DNA of 64,000 nt from Longimicrobiales bacterium (GTDB lineage Bacteria > Gemmatimonadota > Gemmatimonadetes > Longimicrobiales > Gaopeijiaceae): the NCBI GenBank assembly GCA_965219445.1, contig CBDCNQ010000005.1, forward strand, positions 1,056,001-1,120,000. The letters are read 5' to 3'. The position numbers and the translations under genes are program-made. The notes under the pieces were generated by a model that was not told the origin of the DNA, made no database searches, and saw only the letters and a program-made list of their open reading frames with translations. Below are positions 10,853 through 31,588 of the stretch, one piece after another. How positions within the stretch are numbered: position 1 is the first letter of the stretch; every line of letters starts with the position of its first letter.

Positions 10853-13800
10853 ATGGACCGTCGGCCCGACAGGGGCCGGGGCCGCGACTCCTCCCGAAGA
10901 CGCTTTGCTCGTTCCTTAGCTGCCCTTGCCCGTCGCTCGGCGGCGGGGTTGCTGCTGCTGCTCGTCACACTGCTGACCGTCCCGGCTCAGGCGCAGCAGG
11001 CCGCCGTACCCGGTGCGCCGACTGACCTAACCGCAACTGCGGTAGGCGAGACGACGATCGATCTGGCATGGACTGCGCCCGCGGATAACGGCGGCGATGC
11101 GATCATCGGCTACCAGATCGAGGTGTGGGTCGCTGGCGGCATGCACTGGGCGGTTCTAAAAGACGACACTGAATCCGCCGGCACGGACTACGCGCACACC
11201 GGACTGATGGACGGCCGAACACGGTACTACCGGGTCTCGGCGATCACCTCCGTGGGTGCTGGCGCGACGTCGAACGTCGCGAGCGCAACCACCACGGACA
11301 TGATGGCGCCGCAGTTCTCGGGGAACGCTGGGGATACCAGTGTACCGGTCAACGGCACGGACGTGCTTCTCCAATTCGACGAGAGCCTGGACAGGGGAGC
11401 GGGCCGCGTGCCCCTTGCAAGCGCCTTCACCGTCACTGCCGACGGTGTGGCCATTGCGGTGGACGGCGTGCACGTGGAGGGGAGTGTCGTCCGGCTGGCC
11501 CTGGACGGGGTGATAACAAGGGATCAATCCGTCACGGTGAGCTATCGCGACCCCACGCCCGGCGACGACCCGGCGGCCATTCAGGATTACGCCGGCAACG
11601 ACGCGGAGTCCTTTTCCGATCACACGATCTCGAACGGCAGGAATAAGTCCGTTGTATTGGGGGCGCCGACGAACCTGACAGCGACGGGGGTCAGCGCGAC
11701 GCAGATCGACCTGTCGTGGGAGACGCCGGCCGGGTTCACGCCCACGGGCTACCGGATCGAGGTGTCCACCGACGGCGGCACGACCTGGACCGACCGGGTG
11801 GCCAACACCGGGTCCACCGCCACCGCCTACGCGCACACCGGCCTGACGCTCGGCGACACGCGCCACTACCGGGTCTCGGCCATCCACTTCAGCAACCCGG
11901 CGCTGGCGTCGAACGTCGCCAGCGCCGCCGCCTTCGACACCGCGGATACCACCGCGCCGGCGTTCTTGCGTAACAATGGACTAACCAGAGTGGGCAGCGC
12001 AGGCGGCGCCCTCTTTCTCATTTACAACGAGGATCTCGACGACAGCGCTGGCCGCACGCCCCCCGCCAGCGCCTTTACCGTCACCGCCGACGGCAGCACG
12101 GTCACGGTGACCGAGGCGCAGATACTCGGACAGCTCGTCCGTCTGCTCCTGGATCCGGTGATCACCATTTATCAGACCGTCACGGTGAGCTACCGCGATC
12201 CCACGGTGGGCGACGATGCAGCCGCCATTCAGGACTTCGCCGGCAACGACGCGGCGTCCTTTGCCGATCACACCATCACGAACAACTCCCTCCTACTGGG
12301 CGCGCCGACGAACCTGACGGCGACGGGGGTCAGCGCGACGCAGATCGACCTGTCGTGGGAGGCGCCGGCCGGGTTCACGCCCACGGGCTACCGGATCGAG
12401 GTGTCCGCCAACGGCGGCACGACCTGGACCGATCGGGTGGCCGACACCGAGTCGACCGCCACCGCCTACTCCCACACCGGGCTGACGCTCGGCGACACGC
12501 GCCACTACCGGGTCTCGGCGGTCCTCGGCGACCGGACGGCGCTGGCCTCCAACGTCGCCAGCGCCGCCGCCTTCGACACCGCGGATACCACCGCGCCGGC
12601 GTTCTTGCGTAACAATGGACTAACCAGAGTGGGCAGCGCAGGCGGCGCCCTCTTTCTCATTTACAACGAGGATCTCGACGACAGCGCTGGCCGCACGCCC
12701 CCCGCCAGCGCCTTTACCGTCACCGCCGACGGCAGCACGGTCACGGTGACCGAGGCGCAGATACTCGGACAGCTCGTCCGTCTGCTCCTGGATCCGGTGA
12801 TCACCATTTATCAGACCGTCACGGTGAGCTACCGCGATCCCACGGTGGGCGACGATGCAGCCGCCATTCAGGACTTCGCCGGCAACGACGCGGCGTCCTT
12901 TGCCGATCACACCATCACGAACAACTCCCTCCTACTGGGCGCGCCGACGAACCTGACGGCGACGGCCATCAGCGCGACGCAGATCGACCTGTCGTGGGAG
13001 GCGCCGGCCGGGTTCACGCCCACGGGCTACCGGATCGAGGTGTCCGCCGACGGCGGCACGACCTGGACCGATCGGGTGGCCGACACCGAGTCGACCGCCA
13101 CCGCCTACTCCCACACCGGGCTGACGCTCGGCGACACGCGCCACTACCGGGTCTCGGCGGTCCTCGGCGACCGGACGGCGCTGGCCTCCAACGTCGCCAG
13201 CGCCGCCGCCTTCGACACCGCGGATACCACCGCGCCGGCGTTCTTGCGTAACAATGGACTAACCAGAGTGGGCAGCGCAGGCGGCGCCCTCTTTCTCATT
13301 TACAACGAGGATCTCGACGACAGCGCTGGCCGCACGCCCCCCGCCAGCGCCTTTACCGTCACCGCCGACGGCAGCACGGTCACGGTGACCGAGGCGCAGA
13401 TACTCGGACAGCTCGTCCGTCTGCTCCTGGATCCGGTGATCACCATTTATCAGACCGTCACGGTGAGCTACCGCGATCCCACGGTGGGCGACGATGCAGC
13501 CGCCATTCAGGACTTCGCCGGCAACGACGCGGCGTCCTTTGCCGATCACACCATCACGAACAACTCCCTCCTACTGGGCCCACCGACGAACCTGACGGCG
13601 ACGGCCATCAGCGCGACGCAGATCGACCTGTCGTGGGAGGCGCCGGCCGGGTTCACGCCCACGGGCTACCGGATCGAGGTGTCCGCCGACGGCGGCACGA
13701 CCTGGACCGATCGGGTGGCCGACACCGAGTCGACCGCCACCGCCTACTCCCACACCGGGCTGACGCTCGGCGATACGCGCCACTACCGGGTCTCGGCGGT

Positions 13801-16800
13801 CCTCGGCGACCGGACGGCGCTGGCCTCCAACGTCGCCAGCGCCGCCGCCTTCGACACCGCGGATACCACCCCGCCAACGTTTGTGTATGACGACCCGACT
13901 ACCGAAGTAGTGCTCAGCGGCTATCAGGTCGCCTTAGCATTCAACGAGGTGCTCGACGGCCGTGCCGGCCGCCTGCCTCTCGCCAGCGCCTTCACCGTGA
14001 CCGCCGACGGCAGCACGGTCACGGTGACCGAGGCGCTGGTAGTCGCACAGTCCGTCCGCCTGGTCCTGGACGGGGTGATCACGTACCGGCAAACCGTCAC
14101 GGTGAGCTACGGGGATCCCACGCCCGGCGACGATGAGGCGGCCATCCAGGATTATGCCGGCAACGACGCGGCATCCTTCACGGATCAAGCCATAACCAAT
14201 ATCTCCGACCTCTGGCAGGGGCCGACGAACCTGCGGGCGACTAGGAGAAACCTGAACGAGACCGACCTGTCGTGGCAGGCGCCGGCGGACTTCGAGCCCG
14301 AGAGTTACCGGGTCGAGGGCAACAACAACGCCCCCAATACCTGGACCACCCTGGTCGCCGGGGTGGATGATCCCACCGACACCGTCTTTTCCCATTACGA
14401 CCAGTTCCCCGACCCGACCCTTCCGTACCGCTACCGGGTCTGGGCGGTTTCGAGCACCGTCGAGTCCGTCGTGTCGAACACGGCGGCCGCAGGCCCGGAC
14501 CGAGTGCCCCCGGTCCTTGTCCCGGAGCACCGGGATACCTCGGTGCTCAGCGACGGCACAGCCATCACGCTCAAGTTCGACGAAATCCTGGTGGACGGCC
14601 CCCCGTGGAGCGCCTTTACGGTGACGGTGGACGGCATCCCGGTTCAGCAGGGCCGCGTCACAACCGGGCAAGAGCAGATCCGGCTGACGGGCTTCGAATC
14701 GCCGATCGGGGGCGGTCGGGTCGTGAGGGTCAGCTACCGCGATCCCACACCCGGCGACGACCCGGCGGCCATCCAGGACGCCGCCGGCAACGACGCCGCG
14801 TCCTTCACCGACGTGGTGGTCAAGAACAGTTCCCGGGTGCTGCCGGCGCCGACGAACCTGAGGGCGACGGGGATCGACGATACGCGGATCGGGCTCGCCT
14901 GGAACGCGCCGGACCTGTCCGGGCTCGTCTGGCCGGAGCATCTCCCCGGGGCCGGTATCCACGGCTACAAGATCGAAGCGTCCACCGATGGCGGCACGAC
15001 CTGGACCACCCTGGTGCTCACCGACAACCGGGCTACCAGCTACGTCCACACCGGCCTGGCGCACGGCGCTGTCCGGCACTACCGGGTCTCGGCGATCAAC
15101 GCGTTCGTTTTTGCGGGCCTGCCGTCAAACGTCGCCGGCGCCATCTCCTCGGATACCCAGCCGCCGTCCCTCAAGAGCGCCGCCACGAACCAGGACGGCA
15201 CCGAGGTCAACCTCACATTCACCGAAGCCGTCAGAACCGGATCCGGTTTCGGCCCCCCCGCGAGCGCCTTCACTGTCACGGCGGACGGCACGCCCACGAC
15301 CGTGGGCACCGTCACCAGCGGGTCTACGAGCGTCCTTCTGAGGGGCTTGGGTTTGGTGATCAGGCAAGGCCAGACGGTCACGGCGAGCTACCGCGATCCC
15401 ACGCCGGGCGACGACCAGGCCGCACTCCAGGATGACGCCCTCAACGACGTGGCGTCCTTTACCGACCGGCCGGTCACGAATCAGTCCACGGTGGCGCCCA
15501 CGGCGCCGGGCGCGCCGGCCAACCTCAAGGCGCGGGCCAGGGGCGACACGCGGATCGACCTGTCCTGGGACGCGCCGGGGGACACCGGAGGCCGCGCGAT
15601 CGACGGCTACAAGATCGAAGTGTCGTCCGACAACGGCAACACGTGGACGGACCGGACCGCGAACACCGGATCGGCCGACACCGCCTACTCCCACACCAGC
15701 CTTACGTCAGGCTCGACGCGGCACTACCGGGTCTCGGCGATCAACGCGGTGGGCACGGGCGCGGTCTCGAACGTCGCCAACGCCACCGCGGGGTCGGGTC
15801 CGGCGACGCCGGAGAGCGTGTCGGCGACGGGGGCGTACGCGCGCGTCGGTGTGACCTGGGACGCGGTCACCGGGGCGACCGGCTACACGGTGCAGTGGAA
15901 ATCCGGAGAGGAGTCGTTCTCGAGTGCCCGCGAGACTGCGGTGACGACCAACAGTGCGACGGTGTCCCCGCTCGCCAACGGGGCGGCCTTCATGGTGCGG
16001 GTGAGTGCCAGCAACACCGCGGGTGATAGCGAGTGGTCGGGGGCGGTCACGGCCGCGACCCCGGTCCTGGCGGCGCCGGCGAATGTCGTGGCGACCCGCG
16101 GCGACGGGCGCCTGGACGTGAGCTGGGACGCGGTCGAGGGAGCGGAGCGGTACAAGGTGCAGTGGACGTCGGGCGGGCGGGCGTTTGCGGACTCCCGCGA
16201 GATCACGGCGGAGACGAACGCGGCGACGGTGCCCGATCTCGCGAACGGCACGACGTATACGCTGCGGGTGCGGGCGGCCAACGCCGGTGGCGAGAGCGAC
16301 TGGTCGGCCACGGAAACGGGCACGCCGCAGGTGCCGGCGCCCGAGACCCCGGAGAAGCTGAAGGTGACGGCGGGCGACACCAACCTGGCGGTGACCTGGG
16401 ACGCGGTGCCGGTCGCGGCGGAGTACACCGTGCAGTGGAAATCCGGGACTGAAGAGTTCGATTCCGAGCGGCAACTGACGGTGACGGTGAACACCGCGAC
16501 GGTGCCCGGGCTGGTCAACGGAACCACCTACACGCTGCGGGTGCAGGCGGCCAACGCGGGCGGTGAGAGCGGCTGGTCGGAGACGGCCACCGGCACGCCG
16601 ACGCCGCTCGGGGTGCCGGGGAACATGGAGGTGACGGCCTGGGACGGGCGCGTGGCGGTGTGCTTCGACGAGGTCGTGGGTGCGACCGAGTACACGGTCC
16701 AGTGGCGGACGGACGCGGAGGCGTACAGCGAGGACCGGCAGAAGACCGTGTTCGAGACCTCCGAGACGATGGACTGCGGCGAGGGGCGGCTGAGCACGAC

Positions 16801-19800
16801 CGTCCACCGGCTGGCCAACGAGACGCCGCACTGGTTCCGGGTGCGGGCGAGCAACTCCTGGTGGGACGAGGGAATCAAGCGCAAGGACAGCCTCTGGTCG
16901 GTCGAGGTGACGGCCACGCCGACGGCGACGCCGGCGGCGCCAGCCAATCTGGTGGTCACGCCGGGCGACGGGCGCCTGGACGTGAGCTGGGACGCGGTCG
17001 AGGGCGCGGACAGCTACACGGTCGAGTGGCGGCAGTCGGGGACGGTGCGGGAGCAGGAGGAGACGACCCACGCCGCAGCCCTCACCGGCCTGGTCAACGG
17101 AACGACGTACTCGCTGCGGGTGAAGGCGGCCAACGAGGTGGGCGAGGGTCCCTGGTCGGTGTCGGCGAGGGGCAGGCCGGACCCGCTGGGGCACCCGCCG
17201 GAGGTGTCGATCACGCTCGGTGCGGGGCCGCCGGTGGACGGCGCGTTTGCTGTGAAGGTGACGTTCTCGGAGGCGGTGCGCGGCTTCGAGGACGGCGATC
17301 TGACGGCGGGCTATGTCGGCGGTCCCGGCGTGTTGGTGCGCGGCTTCGACGAGGAGCAGACGGGGCTGGTCTATAGCGCGATGGTGCCGGCGCCGCAGCC
17401 GGGAAAGCTGGTCATCTCGGTGGGTCCGGGAAAGGCCGCCGCGGTCTCCGACTCGCAGGGGAACGCGCTCGGCGCCCTCGTGGTCGAGGTCGGCGACTCG
17501 GGCAATCCGGTGGCGGTGTCCGGGCCAGTGGTGACGGGGGTGTTGATGTCGACGCAATCCGGGAGCGGGAGGCAGGACGGATTCGGCACGCGATCGGTGG
17601 CGGCAAGGGGCAGCTCGGGGTCGGGTAGCTCGGTGCGGGTGACGGTGACGTTCAGCGAGCCGGTGACGGTGGACCTCTCGGGCGGAACGCCGACGATCGG
17701 CCTGATGCTGGGCGGGGGGACAAGAAAGACACCCTACGCGGGCGGCACGGAGACGGAGACGTTGCTTTTCGTCTACACGCTGACCGGGGAAGACGGGAGC
17801 GTGACCGGTGGGTCGGTGACACAGAACAGTCTCACGCTAAACGGAGGGACCATCCGGAGCTGGTCGGGAGAGGACGCGGACCTGGGGCACCCGAGTGCAG
17901 CGCTGGGTGATGCGGGTAGTGGAGAGCTCCCGGCTCTGACGGCCCGCTTCGAGGCGGCACCGGAGGCGCATGACGGCGCGGGCACGTTCACGGTCCGGCT
18001 CGTGTTCAGCGAGCCGGTCGCGATCAGCTACCAGACGCTGCGCGACGAGTCCTTGTCGGCGGCGGGAGGCTCGGTCGAGGGCGCCCGGCGCGTGGATGGG
18101 CGCAGCGATCTGTGGGAGATCACCCTCAAACCGGCCTCGGACGAGCCGGTGACGCTCACGCTCGCGGCGGGGCGTGCCTGCGATACAGCGGGTGCGGTCT
18201 GCACGGCGGACGGACGGCGGCTGTCGAATGAGGCGGTGCTGACTGTGCCCGGCCCGGCAGGAGACGGTCCGGAACTGACGGCGCAGTTCGAGAACGTGCC
18301 GGAGGCCCATGACGGCCAGAGCGCCTTCAGCTTCCAAGTGGCCTTCAGCGAGGACATCGGAATCAGCTACCAGGCGTTGCGCGACGAATCGTTCACGGTG
18401 ACCGGAGGCACCATCACGCGGGCGCGGCGGATCGATGGCCGCCACGACCTGTGGGAGATCGGGGTTGAGCCGGCCGGGCGCGAGGCCGTGACGATCACGC
18501 TCCCTGGCGGGCGTGCGTGCGGGACGGCCGGGGCCGTCTGTACCCGCGGGGACAGCCCGCGGCCGCTCGGCAACAGCCCCTCGTCCACCGTGGAGGGCCC
18601 GGCGAGGGAACTGCTGACGGCCGAGTTTGAGAATGTGCCGGACGAGCACACCGGCGACGACTTCGCGTTCGGGCTGACATTCAGCGAGGAACTCGACAAG
18701 GACTTCAGCTACCAAACGTTGCGCGACGAGGCGTTCGCGGTGACGGGCGGCACGGTGCGCGGGGCCAAACGCCGGGAGCAGGGGAGCAACCTGGGCTGGA
18801 CGATCACGGTCGAGCCGGACTCCGACGGCGTGGTGACACTCCGGCTGCCGGAGACGACCGACTGTGGTGCAAGCGGCGCGGTCTGCACCGGCGACGGCCG
18901 GCCGTTATCCACTTCGCTCTCGGCGACGGTCGCCGGGCTGGTGGGGATCTCGGTGGCCGATGCCCGCGTGGAGGAAGGCGCGGGCGCGGTGCTGGCCTTC
19001 GCGGTGACGCTCGAGCGGGCGGCGGGCGGGGCGGTGACGGTCGACTACGCCACGTCGGACGGCACGGCTCAGGCGGGCGTGGACTACACGGCCACGAGCG
19101 GCACGCTCACGTTCGATGCGGGCGACACGGAGAAGACAGTCGAGGTCCCGGTGCTCGACGACTCGCACGACGAGGGCGACGAAGCGCTGACGCTCCGGCT
19201 GTCGAACGCGTCGGGCGGCCGGCTGGCCGACGCGGAGGCGACCGGGACGATCGAGAACACCGATCCGCTGCCACGCGCGCTCTTGGCTCGGTTCGGCCGG
19301 GCGACGGCGCTCCACGTGATGGAACAGGTCGAGGAGCGGCTGGAGGCGCCCAGGGCTCCGGGCCTGCGGGGCCGGTTCGCGGGCCGTGAGCTCCGGCGCG
19401 GGATGGAGCGGGAGATGGGACGCAACTTCCTGAGCCGGCTCGAGTCCACGGCGGTTCAGGGCGCCCGGGACACGACGGGCGTCCAGCCCGATCTGGGCGG
19501 CGCCGAACTTCTGCGGATGGGTCTCGGCGGCGGGGACCTGCTGATGGGCTCGGGGTTCGTGTTGAACCGCGAGACGGGCCAGGGCGCGAGCGTGTCGCTC
19601 TGGAGCCGTGGGATGGAGTCGCGGTTCAGCGGCCGGGACGGCGAGCTGTCGCTCGACGGCGGGGTCCGGACGACGATGTTCGGCGCGGACTACGCAAAGG
19701 GACCGCTGATGGCGGGGCTGATGCTCTCGCACCGCCGAGGCCTGGGCGGCTACCAGGGGGCCGATGTCGGCCAGGTGGCCTCGTCGGTCACGGGGCTGCA

Positions 19801-20743
19801 TCCGTGGGTGGGCTACAAGCTGACGGAGCGGGTCACGCTCTGGGGCGTGACCGGATACGGGAAGGGCTCGCTGAGCTTGACGCCGGGCGAGGCACTGTCT
19901 GTCCCAACGTCTTCTCTCACGTCCCCTGTCTCTCTCAACGGCGGCCTCTCGATGTCGATGCTGGCCGGCGGCGTGAGAGGCGACTTGGTGGATGCGGGTG
20001 TGGGCGGCTTCGGGCTGGCGTTCAAGGCGGATGCGCTGTGGGTGGGTACGGGCAGCGAGGCCGTGGACGGCCCGGCAGGCCGGTTGGCGGCGACCGAGGC
20101 CGTGGTGACGCGCGTGCGGACGGCGCTCGAGGCCTCGAGGGGCTACGTCGTCGGACACGGGATCGCGCTGCAGCCGAGCCTCGAGGTCGGGCTCAGGAAG
20201 GACGGCGGGGACGCGGAGACGGGCGCGGGCGCGGATGTCGCCGCAAGCCTGATCGCATCGGACCCGTGGACCGGACTGTCGGTCGACGTGCGCGTGCGGA
20301 CGCTGCTGGTGCATCAGGACGAAGGGTTCCGGGAACGGGGTGTGTCGGTGTCGTTCAGCTACGATCCGACGCCCTCGACGCCGCTGGGGTTTACGGCGCG
20401 GGTGGCGCCCTCATGGGGCGGGCAGGCGATGAGCGGTGCCGACGCGCTCTGGGGCCGCGATACGATGGCGGGGCTCGGGGCAGCAGGCCCGGGATCGGGC
20501 AACCGCCTCGATGGCGAGCTCGGCTACGCGCTGCCGGTCGGGAGCCGGCTCGTGGGGACGCCGAGGGTCGGCGTCACAACCTCCGAGTACGGGCGCGACT
20601 ACCGGCTGGGCTACAAACTGACCCTGTTGCAGGCCGGCGCCATGAACTTCGAGTTCGGCCTCGACGCCCAACGCCGCCAGAGCTTGCTGGGCCAGGGAGA
20701 CCCGGAGCACAGCCTGCACGGCCGCGTCACCGCGCGCTGGTAG
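10853..20743 (+). CDS. Giant 3,296-aa surface protein/adhesin: FN3 and SwmB-like repeats, Ig-like and Cys-pair repeats, Calx-beta, C-terminal beta-barrel
   Basis: Signal-peptide-like [17 protein letters not shown]3 motifs ([18 protein letters not shown]); SwmB-like [18 protein letters not shown]; Calx-beta [16 protein letters not shown]; amphipathic strands ending in W. Confidence 0.9.
11660..13870 (+). repeat. Intragenic 639-bp (213-aa) near-identical tandem repeat, about 3.5 units
   Basis: Identical segments recur at 11981, 12620 and 13259 (period 639). Confidence 0.95.
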
Positions 20744-21046
20744 ACGCCGACGGACCGGCAATCTGAAATGCGGCGCGGCCGGACCTCAGTCGCCAGCACG
20801 GCCGGGTACCGGTGCTTCATGATGTCGGATGCGTTGCAAGCCTGTGTCGAGGCCGAAGAGACGCGCCAAAATCGCTTACAAAAACCGCGGCGCGAGGCTC
20901 GCCGTACCCACACCACAACCCGTCTGCTGGCCGCGCTCGCGGGTCGGCTTGAGCAGCACCCTCCGAGGCGAGATCGGGTCGTGCTCGGCCGGACGCAGCC
21001 GTCGGGGTGCGGGTCTTCGCAGGCCGCGTCCCGACCGGCAGGCGCC

Positions 21047-21313
21047 ATGGAGACGCTGACGAAGCCGTTCCGATCGCGAGTGGCTGCGTCCCTCGAGCGC
21101 ACGGGCATGAGAACATCCACGCTCGGTCGGCAAGCGGTGGGCGATCCGATCCCGGTGCGTCAGCTCCGTCCTGGCCGATCCCCGAGGCTGGCGATGGCCT
21201 GCCAGGTCCCCGTGTTCATCGAAGCCTCCAGCCGGGCTCATGTGGCCCCTGTTCCCTCCCGGGGCAACGCGCCCCGCAATTCTTCACCGAACAGAACGGA
21301 GGCAGACCGATGA
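21047..21313 (+). CDS. Small Cro-like/HTH DNA-binding protein, possibly degenerate
   Basis: LERTGMRTSTLGRQAVGDP..VRQLRPGRSP resembles phage/island HTH proteins; ATGA overlap with alpA. Confidence 0.5.
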   Translation: METLTKPFRSRVAASLERTGMRTSTLGRQAVGDPIPVRQLRPGRSPRLAMACQVPVFIEASSRAHVAPVPSRGNAPRNSSPNRTEADR

Positions 21314-21537
21314 CGAGAGCAATGGAACAGGGCATGGACGCGCCCGTGCGCGTCCTGCGGTTACCTCGAGTGCAGGCCCGCACCGGGCTGGCGCGGAGCA
21401 CGATCTATGTGCGGGTGGCCGACGGGAGCTTTCCCCAACCGATCCGGCTAGGCGCGCGCGCCGTCGGCTGGATCGAGTCCGAAGTGGATGCGTGGATCCG
21501 AGACCAGATCGCCGCGAGCCGTGGCAGTGCCGAGTGA
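21310..21537 (+). CDS. alpA: AlpA-family regulator / recombination directionality factor
   Basis: LRLPRVQARTGLARSTIY..GSFPQPIRLGARAVGWIESEVDAWI. Confidence 0.92.
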   Translation: MTRAMEQGMDAPVRVLRLPRVQARTGLARSTIYVRVADGSFPQPIRLGARAVGWIESEVDAWIRDQIAASRGSAE

Positions 21538-22181
21538 TCTGAGACGGAAATCATCTGACAGTTCGCCATGAGAGAGGACAGGGGCCATCGACAAACTGCC
21601 CTCCCGCAAGGTTCGCTCCTTCGCCGCCTCCGGGAACCTCCGCTACGGTCCACTGGATTCCCGTTCAGAAAGAGGGGTGTAATGAGGGGATAGTAGCCAG
21701 GCTATAAGCTCTATCTCTATTATTAACAATGCTTTATAATTATATCGGCACGGCTGATGGACGATTGGGCGGCCTATCTCGCGGGCGAAAGATAGACCTT
21801 GGCCCGCTGCTCCGGGCGGTGCCCGGAGAGGCGTTTCGGAGGCGTCCGCAGAGCTGGCTGAGAACACCTTACGGTGCCTAAGCCAGCCTACCCTTTGTGG
21901 GAACAAAGGGGCTGACGAGGGGCTCCGCCCCCTCGACCCCGAAGAGGTCCCGCGCCGATGCGCGCAAGATCGCGGGCGACGGGTTCGCCGCGATGGCTAA
22001 TCGCCGCTTCGCCGACCGCCGCCGGACAGCCATGGGCGCGAACGGGGACGAGGTTCCGGAGGCGGCCCCCGCCCTCCGCCGCGCCGACACCGGCGCGGAA
22101 ACCAGGGGGTCCAAGGGGGGCGGAGCCTCCCCTTGCCAGACCGCGACGTTAAACGTTGCGTGGGCTGGCTTACGCACCCTA

Positions 22182-23405
22182 CTAAGGGCGTGAGACAGCC
22201 CCCGGCGCGGAGGATCCCGGGTCGTCGGAATCGCTGGCCAATCGCTGCGTGACGTAGTCGCACCACGCCTGAAGGACTTCGGCGCGGCGCTCCAGCAGGT
22301 CGGATCGCTGATACGCCTGAACGACCTTGCTGCGCGGGACGTGGGCGAGGCAGGCTTCCGCGACCTCCGCCGGAACCCCGGACTCGGCCATCCACGACCG
22401 CGCGCTCGACCGGAACCCGTGCGGCGTCGAGGCCACACGGGCGCGGTGAAGCACCCGCCCCGGAGCGTTCACGACCAACGGCCCGCCCGACCTCGACGGG
22501 AACACCAGCGGCGACTCACCGGACAGCGCCCGCGCCCGTTCGAGCACATCGAGCGCGCCCGTGCTGAGCGGCACGGCGAACTCGCGGCCCGCCTTCATCC
22601 TCGAAGCGGGGATCGTCCACTTCGCCGCCTCCAGGTCGATCTCGTCCCAGCGCGCCCCGCGCGCCTCTCCACCCCGAACGGCGGTCAGCACGATCAGTTC
22701 CACACACAACGCAGCCGCCGAGGGCGCATCCCCCAACCGCCGGATCGCCCGGAGCGCCGCCCGGACCTCCTTGTCCGGAAGCGCGCGATAGTGCTCCGGC
22801 CCGGTGCCGTTCACCCTCGGCAGCGCCGCCACCGCCCGGTCCACCGGATTGTCCGGGCGGTAGTTCCGGCCGATGCACCAGCGAAAGACGGCGGAGATCC
22901 GGTGCCGGGCCTTCCGCCCGGCGGCGGGCTTCGAGTTCCAGATTGGTGTGAGGCAGCGGAGTACGTCCGCGCTCGTGATCCGGTCCGCAGGCTTGTCCAG
23001 CAGCGGGGCGGCATGCAGACGAAACGTCGACTCCCACTGCTCGGGAAGCGGGCTCCCAGCCTTCCACGCGTCGCGGTGAAGCTCGATGGTCCTTTCGGCG
23101 GCATCGGCGAACGTCGGGACGCCGCGTCCTCCGCGCGGGTCTTGGCCCAAGCGGACGCCCCGGCTGTTGTCCAGCACCTTCTGCCGGGCCTCGGCGAGCG
23201 TCACCTCGGGATACGGCCCGAGCCCGATCGAGGTGAGCCGTCCGTCGATCCTGACGCGTTGCCGCCACGTTTTCGTGATCCGGCCGCTAGCCGTCCGGTG
23301 GACCCGGAGACTCAGCCCCCGCCCGCCGCGTCCGTCGCCGTAGACTCCGGGTCGGCCGACCGTCCGAACGAACGCGGCGGTGAGTGTCCTCGGTCGCTTG
23401 GTCAT
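22182..23405 (-). CDS. P4-like tyrosine integrase with N-terminal arm-DNA-binding domain
   Basis: YGDGRGGRGLSLRV, LGPYPEVTLAEAR; catalytic R (TAVRGGE), HGFR, LAH, AYQR. Confidence 0.95.
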   Translation of the reverse strand: MTKRPRTLTAAFVRTVGRPGVYGDGRGGRGLSLRVHRTASGRITKTWRQRVRIDGRLTSIGLGPYPEVTLAEARQKVLDNSRGVRLGQDPRGGRGVPTFADAAERTIELHRDAWKAGSPLPEQWESTFRLHAAPLLDKPADRITSADVLRCLTPIWNSKPAAGRKARHRISAVFRWCIGRNYRPDNPVDRAVAALPRVNGTGPEHYRALPDKEVRAALRAIRRLGDAPSAAALCVELIVLTAVRGGEARGARWDEIDLEAAKWTIPASRMKAGREFAVPLSTGALDVLERARALSGESPLVFPSRSGGPLVVNAPGRVLHRARVASTPHGFRSSARSWMAESGVPAEVAEACLAHVPRSKVVQAYQRSDLLERRAEVLQAWCDYVTQRLASDSDDPGSSAPGAVSRP

Positions 23406-23583
23406 GGGCTTCCTTCTTTGGTGGTGTATCACTTTGTGCCGCACTACAGAAGGAAGAATACACCGGATGCCAATGGAACGCAAGAGACAGTTCTACCGGG
23501 TGCGTCACGCAAAAACCATTGCAATACAGGATGTTACGGGACTGCTAGTGGACTGTTGTGGACGGCCTCGGATGATGATGTCA

Positions 23584-23599
23584 GAGTTCAACTGAACTC
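23584..23599. other. Candidate att core, palindrome GAGTTCA-AC-TGAACTC
   Basis: Perfect 7-2-7 inverted repeat at the element/host junction; contains the pilN stop codon. Confidence 0.55.
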
Positions 23600-24196
23600 A
23601 TACACCAACTGGCCCGTTGTCTCGAGGACCTGCTCCGTCTGAACAAGCTGCACGCTCCGGATGAAAGGGGACTCCTGCAGCTGCCTCCAGAACGTCGTGA
23701 GAGCGAGGTTATTCCCCGCTCTCCCTCGAACCTGGAATTCGACCTCCTGCCCCACCGAGACCTGTATGACCTGAGTCAACCACGTGTAATCGGGGAGGGC
23801 CCTCGACAACTCATCTAGGAGATGAGGCCAAACGTACCGAAGGGCGTCGATCTCCTGGATGATCGCCACCTTCTGCGCAATCGAGTCTCGCCGAGCTTCC
23901 AAGGTCGCATTGCGCTGGATGAGATCTGCGTAGTTGGCCGAGTCCTGGAGCGCGTCGGCCAGCGCCACCTGGGCGTCGCCCTGCCTGGACGAGAGTCCCA
24001 TATACCACCACCCAAGCGTGAGAAGGACCCCGAGCCCCACGACGGCCGCCGCGATGGTGTAGGAATCCGCGAGAAGGCTCCCCAGATCTGGCATCGACAG
24101 TTTTCCTAAGGCGGCACCGATGCCACCGCCACCACCGCCGCCACCCTTCGAGGGCCGCCTTTTCTTCCCGCCAGGCAGAAGATTGACTTCAATCAC
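23588..24196 (-). CDS. pilN: Type IV pilus assembly protein PilN, probably 3'-truncated by the element
   Basis: MIEVNLLP start, one TM, coiled coil, WPHLLDELSRALPDYTWL; ends abruptly at VYEFS; pilO/P/Q do not follow. Confidence 0.85.
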   Translation of the reverse strand: MIEVNLLPGGKKRRPSKGGGGGGGGIGAALGKLSMPDLGSLLADSYTIAAAVVGLGVLLTLGWWYMGLSSRQGDAQVALADALQDSANYADLIQRNATLEARRDSIAQKVAIIQEIDALRYVWPHLLDELSRALPDYTWLTQVIQVSVGQEVEFQVRGRAGNNLALTTFWRQLQESPFIRSVQLVQTEQVLETTGQLVYEFS

Positions 24197-24217
24197 AGTA
24201 CCGTTCCTCGTCGTCGG

Positions 24218-25256
24218 CTAGACAGTCCGAAGGGCCAAACCGAGCGGAAGAAGGAGCATGGGCGCCGCTTCCTCCAGCACGACCGTCCCGGTGGCCCCAG
24301 GCTGGACCGGGACCTGTTCGAACGGGTTGACCATGTCCGTTTACAAGTTCGTACGATTCCCTAGAGCATCAGCCATGCCAGGAATGCGGGCGCCACCGCC
24401 ACTGAGGTAGATGCCCCCCAATCCTCCACCATCCTGACGGGTCATGAGGAAAGCCGACGCACGTTCGATGCCAACACCCACCTCATCGGCAGCGGAATCT
24501 ATGAGCGACGAGAGGTCGTCGAGCGTCTCCCGGCCCTGGACGACATCCTCAGCCTGCTCCGCCGTGAGCCCCCTCTCCCGCTGTAGGTCCTGACGCACCC
24601 TTCTCGACCCGAAGGGTATGTCACGCGTGAGAAGAGGGCTTCCGTCCTCGAGAATATTCACGTTTGTGGTCTCGTGCCCGATGTTGACCAGAGCCACGAT
24701 TCCCCTCATCGCCTCCGGATGGTTGTGGGCGAAAGCGTTGTGGAGTGCGAAGGCATCTACATCGATCGCAGCGGGAGAAAGCCCTGCGTCGAGTAGCAAG
24801 CTCACCTTGTGGTCCACAAGCTCCCGCTTGGCGGCCACAAGAAGAACCTGCATCTGCATGCCCTCCTCGAGGGGATCGAGAATTTGAAAATCCAACTCAA
24901 CGCTCTTGATGTCGAACGGAACGTGTTGCTCCGCTTCCCAGCGGATGACCTCGCGAGCGTCGGATTCCTTCATCCGGTCCATCTCGATCTTCTTGATGAT
25001 CACGTCGTGCCCTCCCACGGCCGTGACCACCGACTTTCCCTTCATCCCGATCTCTTGGAACACATCGCGAATGGTGTCGGAAACGAGGCCTGGGGTCCAT
25101 CACCTCGCCCTCCACGATTGCGTCGGCAACCAAAGGACGCATGGCGACCCCGCTGACCTCGGGCTGATCACCGGAATGATCGACGGCAACGACCTTCACA
25201 AAGCCGCTGCCGACGTCCAACCCTACCGACTCCTTACTGCGTCCGAAGAGGCCCAT
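24218..25256 (-). pseudogene. pilM: PilM with a +1 frameshift and an internal stop
   Basis: VGLDVGSG N-terminus. An extra base in the 4-nt run at 25092-25095 breaks DPGLVSDTIRDVFQE. An in-frame TAA at 24341-24343 is followed by the normal tail MVNPFEQV...LGLALRTV. Confidence 0.88.
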
Positions 25257-25498
25257 TCAACGCTCGTCTTATCGGGACAGGAACATATTTTTATTGGAAT
25301 CTTAAATCACGTTACCACTTAAATGTGAGCAGTGTCAAGACATTTTTGGGCACTACAAAAACGGATTATTGGTAAACATTTGAGTAGTGCCGCCCCTCGG
25401 CTTGCGGTGGTGATTTGCCGGAGATCAACGGGACTCGACGAGGATCCAGTCGGAAAAACAGTTCCGAACAGGAGTGCCTATGACCCGAGACGCAGACC

Positions 25499-26650
25499 TC
25501 AGTGTGAGTCCGGCCAGACCCCGTCTGGAATGGGGGCGAGCTCCCGGAGTTGCTCGGCAGCATCCAACGCGGACAGTGCCGCGCACGCCGAGCCGACGAT
25601 GCGTGAGCCGCCCCCGAGGAAGACCGCTCCTCGGACGCGGACGAGTCCGTGGATTTCCGACTCCGCGGTGATCTCGAGATCGCCGGCGACGACCACGACC
25701 CCGTAATAACGAGTGGCAGCCCGGAAGCTCGCATCCCCCGCGATCAGCAGGACGCCCTGACCCTGCCCTCCGTTCACAATCAACGAACCCTCGGATTTCA
25801 CCACTGGTCTATACGCAGCGCAGGGGTCCGAGGCATCCAGCGGAGCTCCCCAATTGGTCCGGGAAGGCACGGCACACCGGCCCAGCCGACGGATCGGCGC
25901 CGGCGTGACGGTTCCAGACACTTGGAGATCGGCACCGTCCATGAGTGCATCATGCCCCAGAAGACCCAAGGAGGGTAGACGTAGCTCCACCGCACCTGAT
26001 CCCGGCTTCCGTCCGAGGTCGGCCCGTGGGTCCTCGTGTAGTTCTCCCTGAGGGTAAAGCCCGTAGGTGAACGGGGTATCCGCGTCTGGACTGAAGGGAA
26101 TACAGGACGCTTCCAGCCACGGAACCGGGGTATCATGAATCAGGCTGGGATCCACCATACTGCCGGCCTCGACCCGTGCAGGCTCGCCACTTTCGAGGAT
26201 CCCACGGGCAGCCGAGTACCGCGCCAGGGGGTCCATCGCCCAGTAGAGGCCCACCTGCCGATCCCGGCCGGGGTCAGTGTCCAACCACCCCTCAGCAAGA
26301 ATCAAGAGCACCTCGCGCGACAACCGCACCACCCTTGCAGCATATCGCGCCCGAGGCGGAACAGCCGCCGACCCCATCGGTATCCACTCCCCCCACGGGA
26401 GGGAGTCCATGCCCGTCATCGCCCGCGATGTCAGCTTCCGGCCCGATTCAGCGGCGAGCCTCCTGGTGAGCAAATCCCATCTCGCCCGCGATACGAAGAA
26501 CTCGGATCGAGTCATCACGAGAAGCGTGTGCCCCAACCCCGTGCCCGCAAGCAGCAAGAGCAGAACCCCGATCAACACGTACCCTCTTCGCGTTGCCTCT
26601 CGAAGGCCGTTGAGGAGGTGCAGTGGGTCGTGTTCAGCAGCCTTCTGCAT
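25499..26650 (-). CDS. PilX-like minor pilin
   Basis: Prepilin-like RRG|YVLIGVLL lacking Glu5; C-terminal GQGVLLIAGD..YGVVVVAG repeats; last gene of the minor-pilin cluster. Confidence 0.65.
   Translation of the reverse strand: MQKAAEHDPLHLLNGLREATRRGYVLIGVLLLLLAGTGLGHTLLVMTRSEFFVSRARWDLLTRRLAAESGRKLTSRAMTGMDSLPWGEWIPMGSAAVPPRARYAARVVRLSREVLLILAEGWLDTDPGRDRQVGLYWAMDPLARYSAARGILESGEPARVEAGSMVDPSLIHDTPVPWLEASCIPFSPDADTPFTYGLYPQGELHEDPRADLGRKPGSGAVELRLPSLGLLGHDALMDGADLQVSGTVTPAPIRRLGRCAVPSRTNWGAPLDASDPCAAYRPVVKSEGSLIVNGGQGQGVLLIAGDASFRAATRYYGVVVVAGDLEITAESEIHGLVRVRGAVFLGGGSRIVGSACAALSALDAAEQLRELAPIPDGVWPDSH
26602..26645. mobile_element. 44-bp collapsed MITE remnant
   Basis: GAAGGCCGTTGAGGAGGTGCAGTGGG...TCAGCAGCCTTC; both termini match the MITE at 27372. 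Confidence 0.7.
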
Positions 26651-26665
26651 GGATCCGCCCTCGAA

Positions 26666-27454
26666 TCAACGGTGCTCAGGGGTCCAAAACTGGAGGGACG
26701 TCGAGCTGGTATCGGCTCCCTCACGTAATCCGTCGGCAACGAGCCGGAAGACGACCCGATCCACCCGGGCCTCCATGGTCGATCGATCGTCGTCGAACAC
26801 GTTCGGGGTCAGGGGCTGTCGGCCACCCAGTCCTCGGCGATAGCGCAGGGCTCCGCCGCCAATATGATAGCTCCCTCGTTCGAAGACCCTGACAACCAAC
26901 GCACCCGTAACAGGCGGTTCTACGGTCCACACCTCGGAGTCCCCTACCAGATCCATCGTACAGGACTGTGCCCCCGAGGCCCGACCTGTCAGATCCGCAC
27001 CGTGCCATCCATCGGATGGCAGGATCAGAACAGAGTCCTTTACCGGATTCGCCATCCGCTCGCCGTGGTAGGCCACGACGATCCTTCCGGGCTCGTTACC
27101 GAACCCGCACACCGGCCCCCATCCACGAAACGCCCGGAGTGAAAGACTGTCAGACGTCGGACCGATCCAGTCTCTCCCTCTCACTCCCGCCCGCAGTTCC
27201 TTCCCGATCACGATCGCCGCGAGTCGTCGAGCCGAAAGTAGATCCATTTCGGACCTCAGTCGGGACGCGATGCTTCGTTGACGGGCGAGAGAGTTCCAGC
27301 TCAACGAGATCACCGCGAGCCCCATCAGCAGGGACACGAGCACCTCCACGACCGTGACACCGCAGCGGTTAGAAGGCCGTTGAAGGAGTACAGTGGGCCG
27401 CGTTGCGGATGCCACGGCCTCAGCTCCTAGGCGGAGCGACGACGCCATAGCCAT
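26666..27454 (-). CDS. PilW-like minor pilin; native start (27602) separated by a MITE
   Basis: RCG|VTVVEVLVSLL class III signal; the remaining in-frame ATGs (27454, 27448) lie inside the MITE. Confidence 0.65.
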   Translation of the reverse strand: MAMASSLRLGAEAVASATRPTVLLQRPSNRCGVTVVEVLVSLLMGLAVISLSWNSLARQRSIASRLRSEMDLLSARRLAAIVIGKELRAGVRGRDWIGPTSDSLSLRAFRGWGPVCGFGNEPGRIVVAYHGERMANPVKDSVLILPSDGWHGADLTGRASGAQSCTMDLVGDSEVWTVEPPVTGALVVRVFERGSYHIGGGALRYRRGLGGRQPLTPNVFDDDRSTMEARVDRVVFRLVADGLREGADTSSTSLQFWTPEHR

Positions 27455-31211: not shown

Positions 31212-31588
31212 CTAACGTGTGCAGGCAATGACCCCCTCCGCCGTACCCGGGTCCCCGCCCGCGGCCGCCGCATTCCCTTGATACAGGCCACAGTGTTCGG
31301 CGCTGAGGCCCGCGTGGGACGCAGTCGCAGCCCAGCCAGCGCCAGTCGCCTCGTTGATCGTGATGGTCACTCCGTCACTCACGGTCGCGCCGACGATGGC
31401 AAGCGAATTGCCGAAAGAGAAGGCAGAGTTGTGATAGATCTCCTGCTGAGTCGCCAAGTTCTTTAGATCGGTCTTCATCGTGGAGAGGAACGCCTTCTCT
31501 ACTTCGGAATGGCGACGGAAGCCAGGATGCCGATGATCACGACGACGATGAGGAGTTCGATCAGTGTGAAGCCTCTTCGCTTGTCCAT
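31212..31588 (-). pseudogene. pilA: Second type IV pilin, frameshifted by a deletion of about 13 nt
   Basis: RRG|FTLIELLIVVVIIGILASVAIPK then TAG. Homology resumes in another frame (EKAFLSTMKTDLKNLATQQEIY). The FSATR codons of pilA1 are replaced by 2 nt. Confidence 0.88.

Follow-up and report, generated by a model that had tools for sequence, protein, structure and literature searches.

IMEs with tyrosine integrases are described to use secondary sites, as NBU1 and SGI1 do, or to target other mobile elements, as IME_oriT does (PMC5704250). Off-target insertions have also been described for HE-PICI, along with regulated gene integrity (PMC10111431), and the P4 cluster of integrases (P4/IntS-type, IntSXT subgroup) is reported to insert downstream of tRNA genes (PMC8138268). 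Several competence and pilus genes are interrupted by mobile elements, namely comM, comK, comYC, comGA, comEC, pilB and pilQ (PMC11472951; PMC12955456); the word pilN occurs in the main text of neither article. Here, we describe an element with a P4-like integrase that lies inside pilN. The window, by which we mean the whole stretch of 64 kb that was analysed, corresponds to positions 1056001-1120000 of contig C5 of a 4.56-Mb genome (G000; five contigs, 92% complete). We consider it probable that the element entered pilN at about codon 199 by an off-target insertion, at a sequence that resembles its usual site by chance and within a decaying pilus operon, and that its excision would probably not restore the pilus.

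An earlier note on this DNA had placed the meeting point of pilN and the integrase upstream region at a palindrome that supplies a stop after VYEFS, and this is what we find. The palindrome, GAGTTCA-AC-TGAACTC at 23584-23599, lies 178 nt upstream of the integrase start codon (ATG at 23403-23405, minus strand). It is the sole such site in the 64-kb window with up to two mismatches on both strands (shuffles give 0.02), and the PilN ORF (PF05137, E 7e-13) terminates there with VYEFS*. What remains of pilN on C5 is its 5' part (23588-24196, minus strand; PF05137), codons 1 to about 199 of 227 with a stop made by the junction, which is matched by residues 1-199 of PilN from the congener G006. Residues 200-227 of the same protein match another contig, at C1:185445-185362; there the missing 28 codons, followed by pilO, pilP and pilQ, are found behind a matching attR. 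The two element ends carry the two pilN halves, attL on C5 and attR on C1, and pilO/P/Q are indeed separated from the cut pilN by the element. In all five congeners with a match, PilN runs on uninterrupted with F-Q-L-D-C-V-Y for about 28 residues past the break (11 genomes were searched; of the six without a match, five are fragmented bins that are 73-88% complete and one, G007, carries a deletion), and G006 is colinear across the break. This disposes of two objections that the earlier note had raised against itself, that orthologous PilN might naturally end at YEFS and that the left flank might be unrelated to pilN and pilO. Its expectation of a core repeat followed by the pilN remainder and pilOPQ is correct as to their existence, on C1, and incorrect as to their place. 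Left of the element on C5 we found no copy of the 16-nt palindrome or its flank except one chance match with two mismatches, and the C1 partner of attL was located solely via PilO and secretin searches.

The target is pilN and not the 3' end of a tRNA or tmRNA gene, as had been claimed; the 64-kb window contains neither kind of gene, and Rfam gives no match within 20000-27000. Elsewhere in the genome, 17 co-oriented tRNA genes lie within 2.4 kb (C3:31920-34298). Judged from the sequence, this is a real attP x attB event inside pilN, made by a site-specific tyrosine-integrase element. A chimeric assembly might produce a similar picture, since the elements are multi-copy and the assembly is of the metagenome type. 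We consulted four (X19-X22) of 24 matching read runs as assembled Logan contigs, of which X19 may be the source sample. Record 7 of X19 spans 23525-25007 with no difference and no gap and contains the junction with its 6-nt spacer, though only 60 letters of it lie on the element side and the contigs of the pil locus have a word depth of 3.3-3.5. Further, the other half of pilN abuts the cognate element end, with the same core, on another contig, and the break falls exactly 178-180 nt from the integrase start, as across the rest of the family. We hence regard a chimeric junction as highly improbable. Three contigs of X21 and X22, which stem from two other studies, match up to exactly 23594 and then continue in other letters: X22 record 30 shows 10 differences in the 1501 nt before 23594 and has 8090 further letters, X21 record 20 has one difference in 270 nt up to 23594, and X21 record 19, from a more distant organism, has 39 differences in 354 nt. 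A break at exactly this position is expected of an empty site with one more base. We infer an empty pilN site in these strains, and the insertion is thus likely strain-specific.

The palindrome, real as a sequence, is not the working core for which it had been taken. In this integrase family the core consists of 4-nt arms around a 7-nt spacer. The attL core (23585-23598, minus strand) reads AGTT-CAGTTG-AACT, with the same letters in X19 record 7, and the matching attR (C1:185436-185450), which precedes pilN residues 200-227, reads AGTC-CCAGTTG-GACT. Both have CAGTTG in common, and the attL spacer, one base shorter than the 7-nt spacer of the right end, accounts for the longer palindrome as well as for the stop that follows at once. 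For the pilN site we reconstruct AGTT-CCAGTTG-GACT. Among 87 distinct left ends of the family, the spacer begins with C in 84 and finishes with G in 85. A right-end motif was located in 17 loci, and the spacers, compared by eye, are identical at both ends in nine and differ by one base in three; two further loci (L134, L148) have flanks that do not belong together and three are not att-like. A one-base difference is also seen in two further siblings, and the right end of the element on contig C3 of genome G087 is short of one base at the edge of the core. Thus, the integrases seem able to act on overlaps that are not fully matched. A donor spacer derived from the repeat would disagree with the pilN spacer at the position of the base absent from the attL of the window; this base may have been lost at or after integration, perhaps at this very mismatch. 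A homopolymer error behind the 6-nt spacer and the frameshift in pilM (see below) was considered and rejected, as both places are gap-free in X19 contigs, unless X19 shares the error as source data. A 5.3-kb element at C5:1190218-1195515, whose integrase is 80% identical, occupies a secondary site in a gene of another element and has the same 7-nt spacer at both ends.

The integrase gene (22182-23405, minus strand; 407 aa) is an intact ORF that adjoins one element end, 178 nt from the core. It encodes a P4/IntS-like tyrosine integrase with arm-binding and catalytic domains (PF13356, PF22022, PF00589), 95-96% identical to those of L128 and L129; a match to PRK09692 stays below the cut-off and a search of solved structures gave a single weak domain match. 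The left arm with the integrase leader (23406-23584, minus strand) is conserved too: three sibling elements share it, with 95-96% identity along 1343 nt when the integrase gene is included. Siblings with integrases of 95-96% identity are 11.7-15.9 kb long, and the two annotated ones (L260, L262) have their own relaxase and restriction cargo and no T4SS, as is typical of an IME. A Ku gene lies at L260:18991-19866, about 330 nt beyond the left end of the element of genome G071. In the window, the similarity to the siblings ends within the last codons of the integrase, and from there onward an ICE-like block stands in for their module of AlpA, relaxase and cargo. This block (1-22250, plus strand) has profile matches to VirB8, VirD4/TraG, VirB11 and a 3296-aa Fn3 adhesin, with a GC content of about 0.70 versus 0.62, and VirB2, VirB4 and VirB9 lie just left of the window. 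Its AlpA-type regulator (21007-21537, plus strand; PF05930) is on the strand opposite to the integrase, unlike AlpA of the siblings, and the relaxase is found on C1 in opposite orientation. The 3296-aa protein (10853-20743) consists of Fn3, SWM and Calx-beta repeats, and contig C1 terminates in a similar repeat region. At element boundaries in C5:1047800-1047960, C5:1040950-1041060 and window 22230-22300 there are remnants of the 3' ends of integrase genes, as if another integrase family targeted the 3' ends of integrase genes.

In the assembly as given, the two ends do not lie on one colinear element. The next co-oriented right end, C5:1041110, is 38.5 kb away, interrupted by an IS, about 98% similar to the G071 element (which C5:1042621-1047923 matches at 98%) and flanked by a non-coding repeat instead of pilN. 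The end on C1, with hsdM/S/R, resembles the element at G087:C3 (94.6% in the hsdR region, 84% at attR). The left end of one element is thus joined to the right half of another, for which recombination between repeated elements and a mis-join of contigs are both explanations. On the second account, the same stray insertion took place, the element runs colinearly from attL to the attR of C1 in the cell, and only the separation of the pilN halves is an assembly error. Contig C5 starts with 8 kb that recur at 99.85% identity inside the interval, so that a mis-join is possible; both regions contain many near-identical IS copies, and the low word depth of the X19 contigs points the same way. The colinear order would, however, require a second mis-join inside C1, where repeats reach about 3 kb at most, and the contig ends offer no path that leads from the window to the C1 end. 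Moreover, mismatched flanks occur at L134 and L148 too, and G000 differs from G006 by many block rearrangements, in so many places that a single inversion or translocation was dropped as a candidate. We consider the assembly-error account unlikely. The contig ends C5:1695575-1702419 and C3:1-6845 overlap by 6.8 kb at 99.97%, and these two contigs are probably contiguous. On the stray insertion with later rearrangement, which we prefer, the original element would have been mobilizable, about 12 kb long and equipped with a relaxase and type I restriction cargo, much as the sibling at G087:C3 is. Nested insertions would have followed, together with recombination among repeated elements, and these events would have joined attL to the right half of another sibling and moved the 3' part of pilN and pilOPQ away.

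Where the relatives of this integrase insert bears directly on the proposal of the earlier note that pilN is a new dedicated target. Of 179 loci screened, 99 have an integrase that is at least 60% identical and includes its N-terminus (flank lengths varied, some being short), and none of the 98 others has pilN or pilM near the integrase. Cores were called in 95 of the 99 loci and reduce to the 87 distinct left ends, which were classed by a motif rule. Sixty-six of these lie in coding DNA of LRR genes (loci L048-L205), 33 in forward and 33 in reverse orientation, about 180 nt upstream of each integrase and at codons for I-P-P-E-L; they come from bins labelled with several phyla. Eight ends abut a repeated sequence ending GCAGATCGTGC-AGTC, and 13 lie elsewhere, among them the end in the window and those of two G000 paralogues, which abut the other half of the repeat. 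By this motif rule, none fell into a tRNA-site class. Pfam confirmed LRR families in nine of nine flanks tested in frames set by hand (a tenth, which met a stop within 130 codons, was left out). At L141, the LRR frame continues beyond the right end. The targeting of LRR genes by this family is thus well supported at the level of sequence. In a quick tree of 74 proteins, the integrase of the window groups with L128 and L129 (support 99), as sister (88) to a repeat-targeting clade (99). This nearest clade mostly uses AGTC-CT(A/G)GTTG-AACT in repeated non-coding sequence, which the pilN site resembles. The pattern AGTY-CNNGTTG-RACT, defined after the site had been seen, has eight matches in G000, namely the attR on C1 and seven at the repeat, while a looser core pattern gives 46 strand matches; apart from the repeat family, the stricter pattern matches nothing in G000 but the core at pilN. 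In four of five congeners the pilN site has a weaker left arm and in the fifth a different spacer, so the good match appears to be lineage-specific.

The non-coding repeat is about 100 nt long with inverted GGCAAG...CTTGCC arms, folds modestly and has 16 matches in G000 (including C1:216568, C2:191418, C4:223317, C4:247616, C5:953056, C5:1175453 and C5:1206849). At least two integrase clades land in it. Part of the repeat is seen again directly upstream of another tyrosine integrase gene, and two copies have another integrase gene within about 1 kb. At C5:55250, 1327277, 1041110 and 1681680, two left and two right ends have one and the same half of the repeat as their flank, and no element end adjoins the other half, which suggests that flanks may have been exchanged between elements inserted in opposite orientations.

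If pilN were a dedicated target, the element might act as a reversible switch of pilus assembly or DNA uptake, a case of regulated gene integrity. The near-perfect core at pilN, unique in G000 outside the repeat family, and the intact integrase ORF would suit such a role. Yet the clade does not reuse the gene (0 of 98), the end spacers measure 6 and 7 nt, the ends do not lie on one element and pilM is broken twice. Also, the X19 contig is unbranched across the junction, a weak point because contigs drop rare variants. A dedicated target and switch seem to us very improbable.

The state of the operon further weakens the suggestion of a reversible shut-off. In comparison with G006, pilM (24218-25256, minus strand) has gained one base in the G run at 25092-25095 and has a premature TAA at 24341-24343; both lesions are in X19 contigs with 0 differences, and the stop also occurs in X20 record 13. 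Since pilM has been broken twice independently, excision alone would not restore the pilus. Spacer lengths, frameshift and stop together argue, by sequence, against a precise excision that restores function, and reversibility is unlikely. The strain in X21 and X22 is in frame at the G run of pilM and has lost about 280 nt covering the pilM start. A second pilin gene (31212-31588, minus strand) shows a frameshifting 13-nt deletion near 31500 in the alignment of the assembly to G006, and dprA, whole in four of four congeners, is split in the assembly of G000. The genes comEC, comM, pilD, pilB/T/C and pilO/P/Q look intact, which fits a recent loss and does not give the order of the lesions. Six congeners were examined: G001, G006 and G008 keep the pil operon in order; in G004, pilO has moved upstream of pilM and its first codons remain behind pilN (L297); in G005, pilO is missing, with its first codons left behind pilN (L296), and pilM is cut; in G007, most of pilM through pilQ is deleted, pilO has moved upstream of pilM (L295) and comEC contains a stop. 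As a background of decay, five of 140 orthologous ORFs have matches in two frames (among them the pilin and one paralogue artefact), and a further 12 of the 140 show an apparent, uninspected stop.

This accumulation of separate lesions, in pilM, pilN, the pilin gene and dprA here, in pilM in X21/X22 and in pil genes or comEC in G005 and G007, could also be taken as a sign that an accidental landing was later selected, because loss of DNA uptake by the pilus protects resident mobile elements or because pilus phages are blocked. The genome is crowded with mobile DNA (more than 40 integrase-like tblastn matches), and a conflict model of this type is described in PMC11472951. Relaxed selection would yield the same pattern, however; with pilM already dead the insertion adds nothing unless it came first, and three congeners have kept the order of the operon. 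We consider such selection improbable. It seems plausible that the stray insertion, our favoured reading, has been retained because this lineage can do without its type IV pilus, which is in decay.

In comparison with the described systems, the insertion works like an IME-type site-specific insertion at a secondary site. As in the IMEs covered in PMC5704250, the integrase sits at one end, the siblings carry an AlpA-type gene, relaxase and cargo, the core is short, secondary sites are used at low frequency and the sequence of another element can be a target. Unlike in the IMEs treated there, most relatives here lie inside LRR coding repeats, in either orientation and without replacement sequence, so that the target gene is split. 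HE-PICI, as presented in PMC10111431, likewise combine a clade-defined target with scattered off-target chromosomal insertions recognised from the integrase tree, and have a 7-bp exchange segment; the present elements differ from that account in that there is no helper prophage and no sign of regulated excision, and in that the end spacers differ by one base in five elements examined. The arm-binding, core-binding and catalytic domains are those of P4/IntS-type integrases, whereas, in contrast to the P4 cluster as outlined in PMC8138268, the motif rule assigned none of the 87 ends to a tRNA site. A type IV pilus gene split by a mobile element has parallels among the cases compiled in PMC11472951 and PMC12955456, of which the A. 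baumannii pilQ phage is a comparable single case; unlike the comM-type cases collected there, which are recurrent at one site, the pilN insertion was seen once. Taken alone, it is one isolated off-target event, and pilN should not be listed beside comM or comK among dedicated competence targets. The case shows how an apparent switch can dissolve when one looks at the integrase clade and at the genes nearby.

The LRR-targeting family is the more novel and weightier result. In the main texts of mostly open-access literature, we found no publication that describes integrases targeting LRR genes or names pilN as a target, and the passages of PMC13626063 mention neither pil nor LRR; an earlier listing, for instance in the 2020 TIGER catalogue of integrase targets by Mageeney et al., is possible. 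Many of the homologous loci come from bins of Ca. Palauibacter and similar organisms. We take these to be sponge symbionts. A tentative reading is that the I-P-P-E-L codons of LRR genes are the main landing site of the family, that the elements reshuffle the eukaryote-like LRR proteins of marine symbionts in a site-specific manner, and that pilN is a stray of the sister clade. The near-palindromic I-P-P-E-L codons would admit elements into any LRR repeat unit and in either orientation, and putative reshuffling would truncate LRR arrays and exchange flanks between occupied sites. The short-arm core with its tolerant spacer may possibly be of use as an integration tool. For the family itself, landing in a protein repeat motif in both orientations means many sites per genome and a route between unrelated LRR-rich hosts, and the targeting of LRR genes could be a source of variation in symbiont surface proteins.
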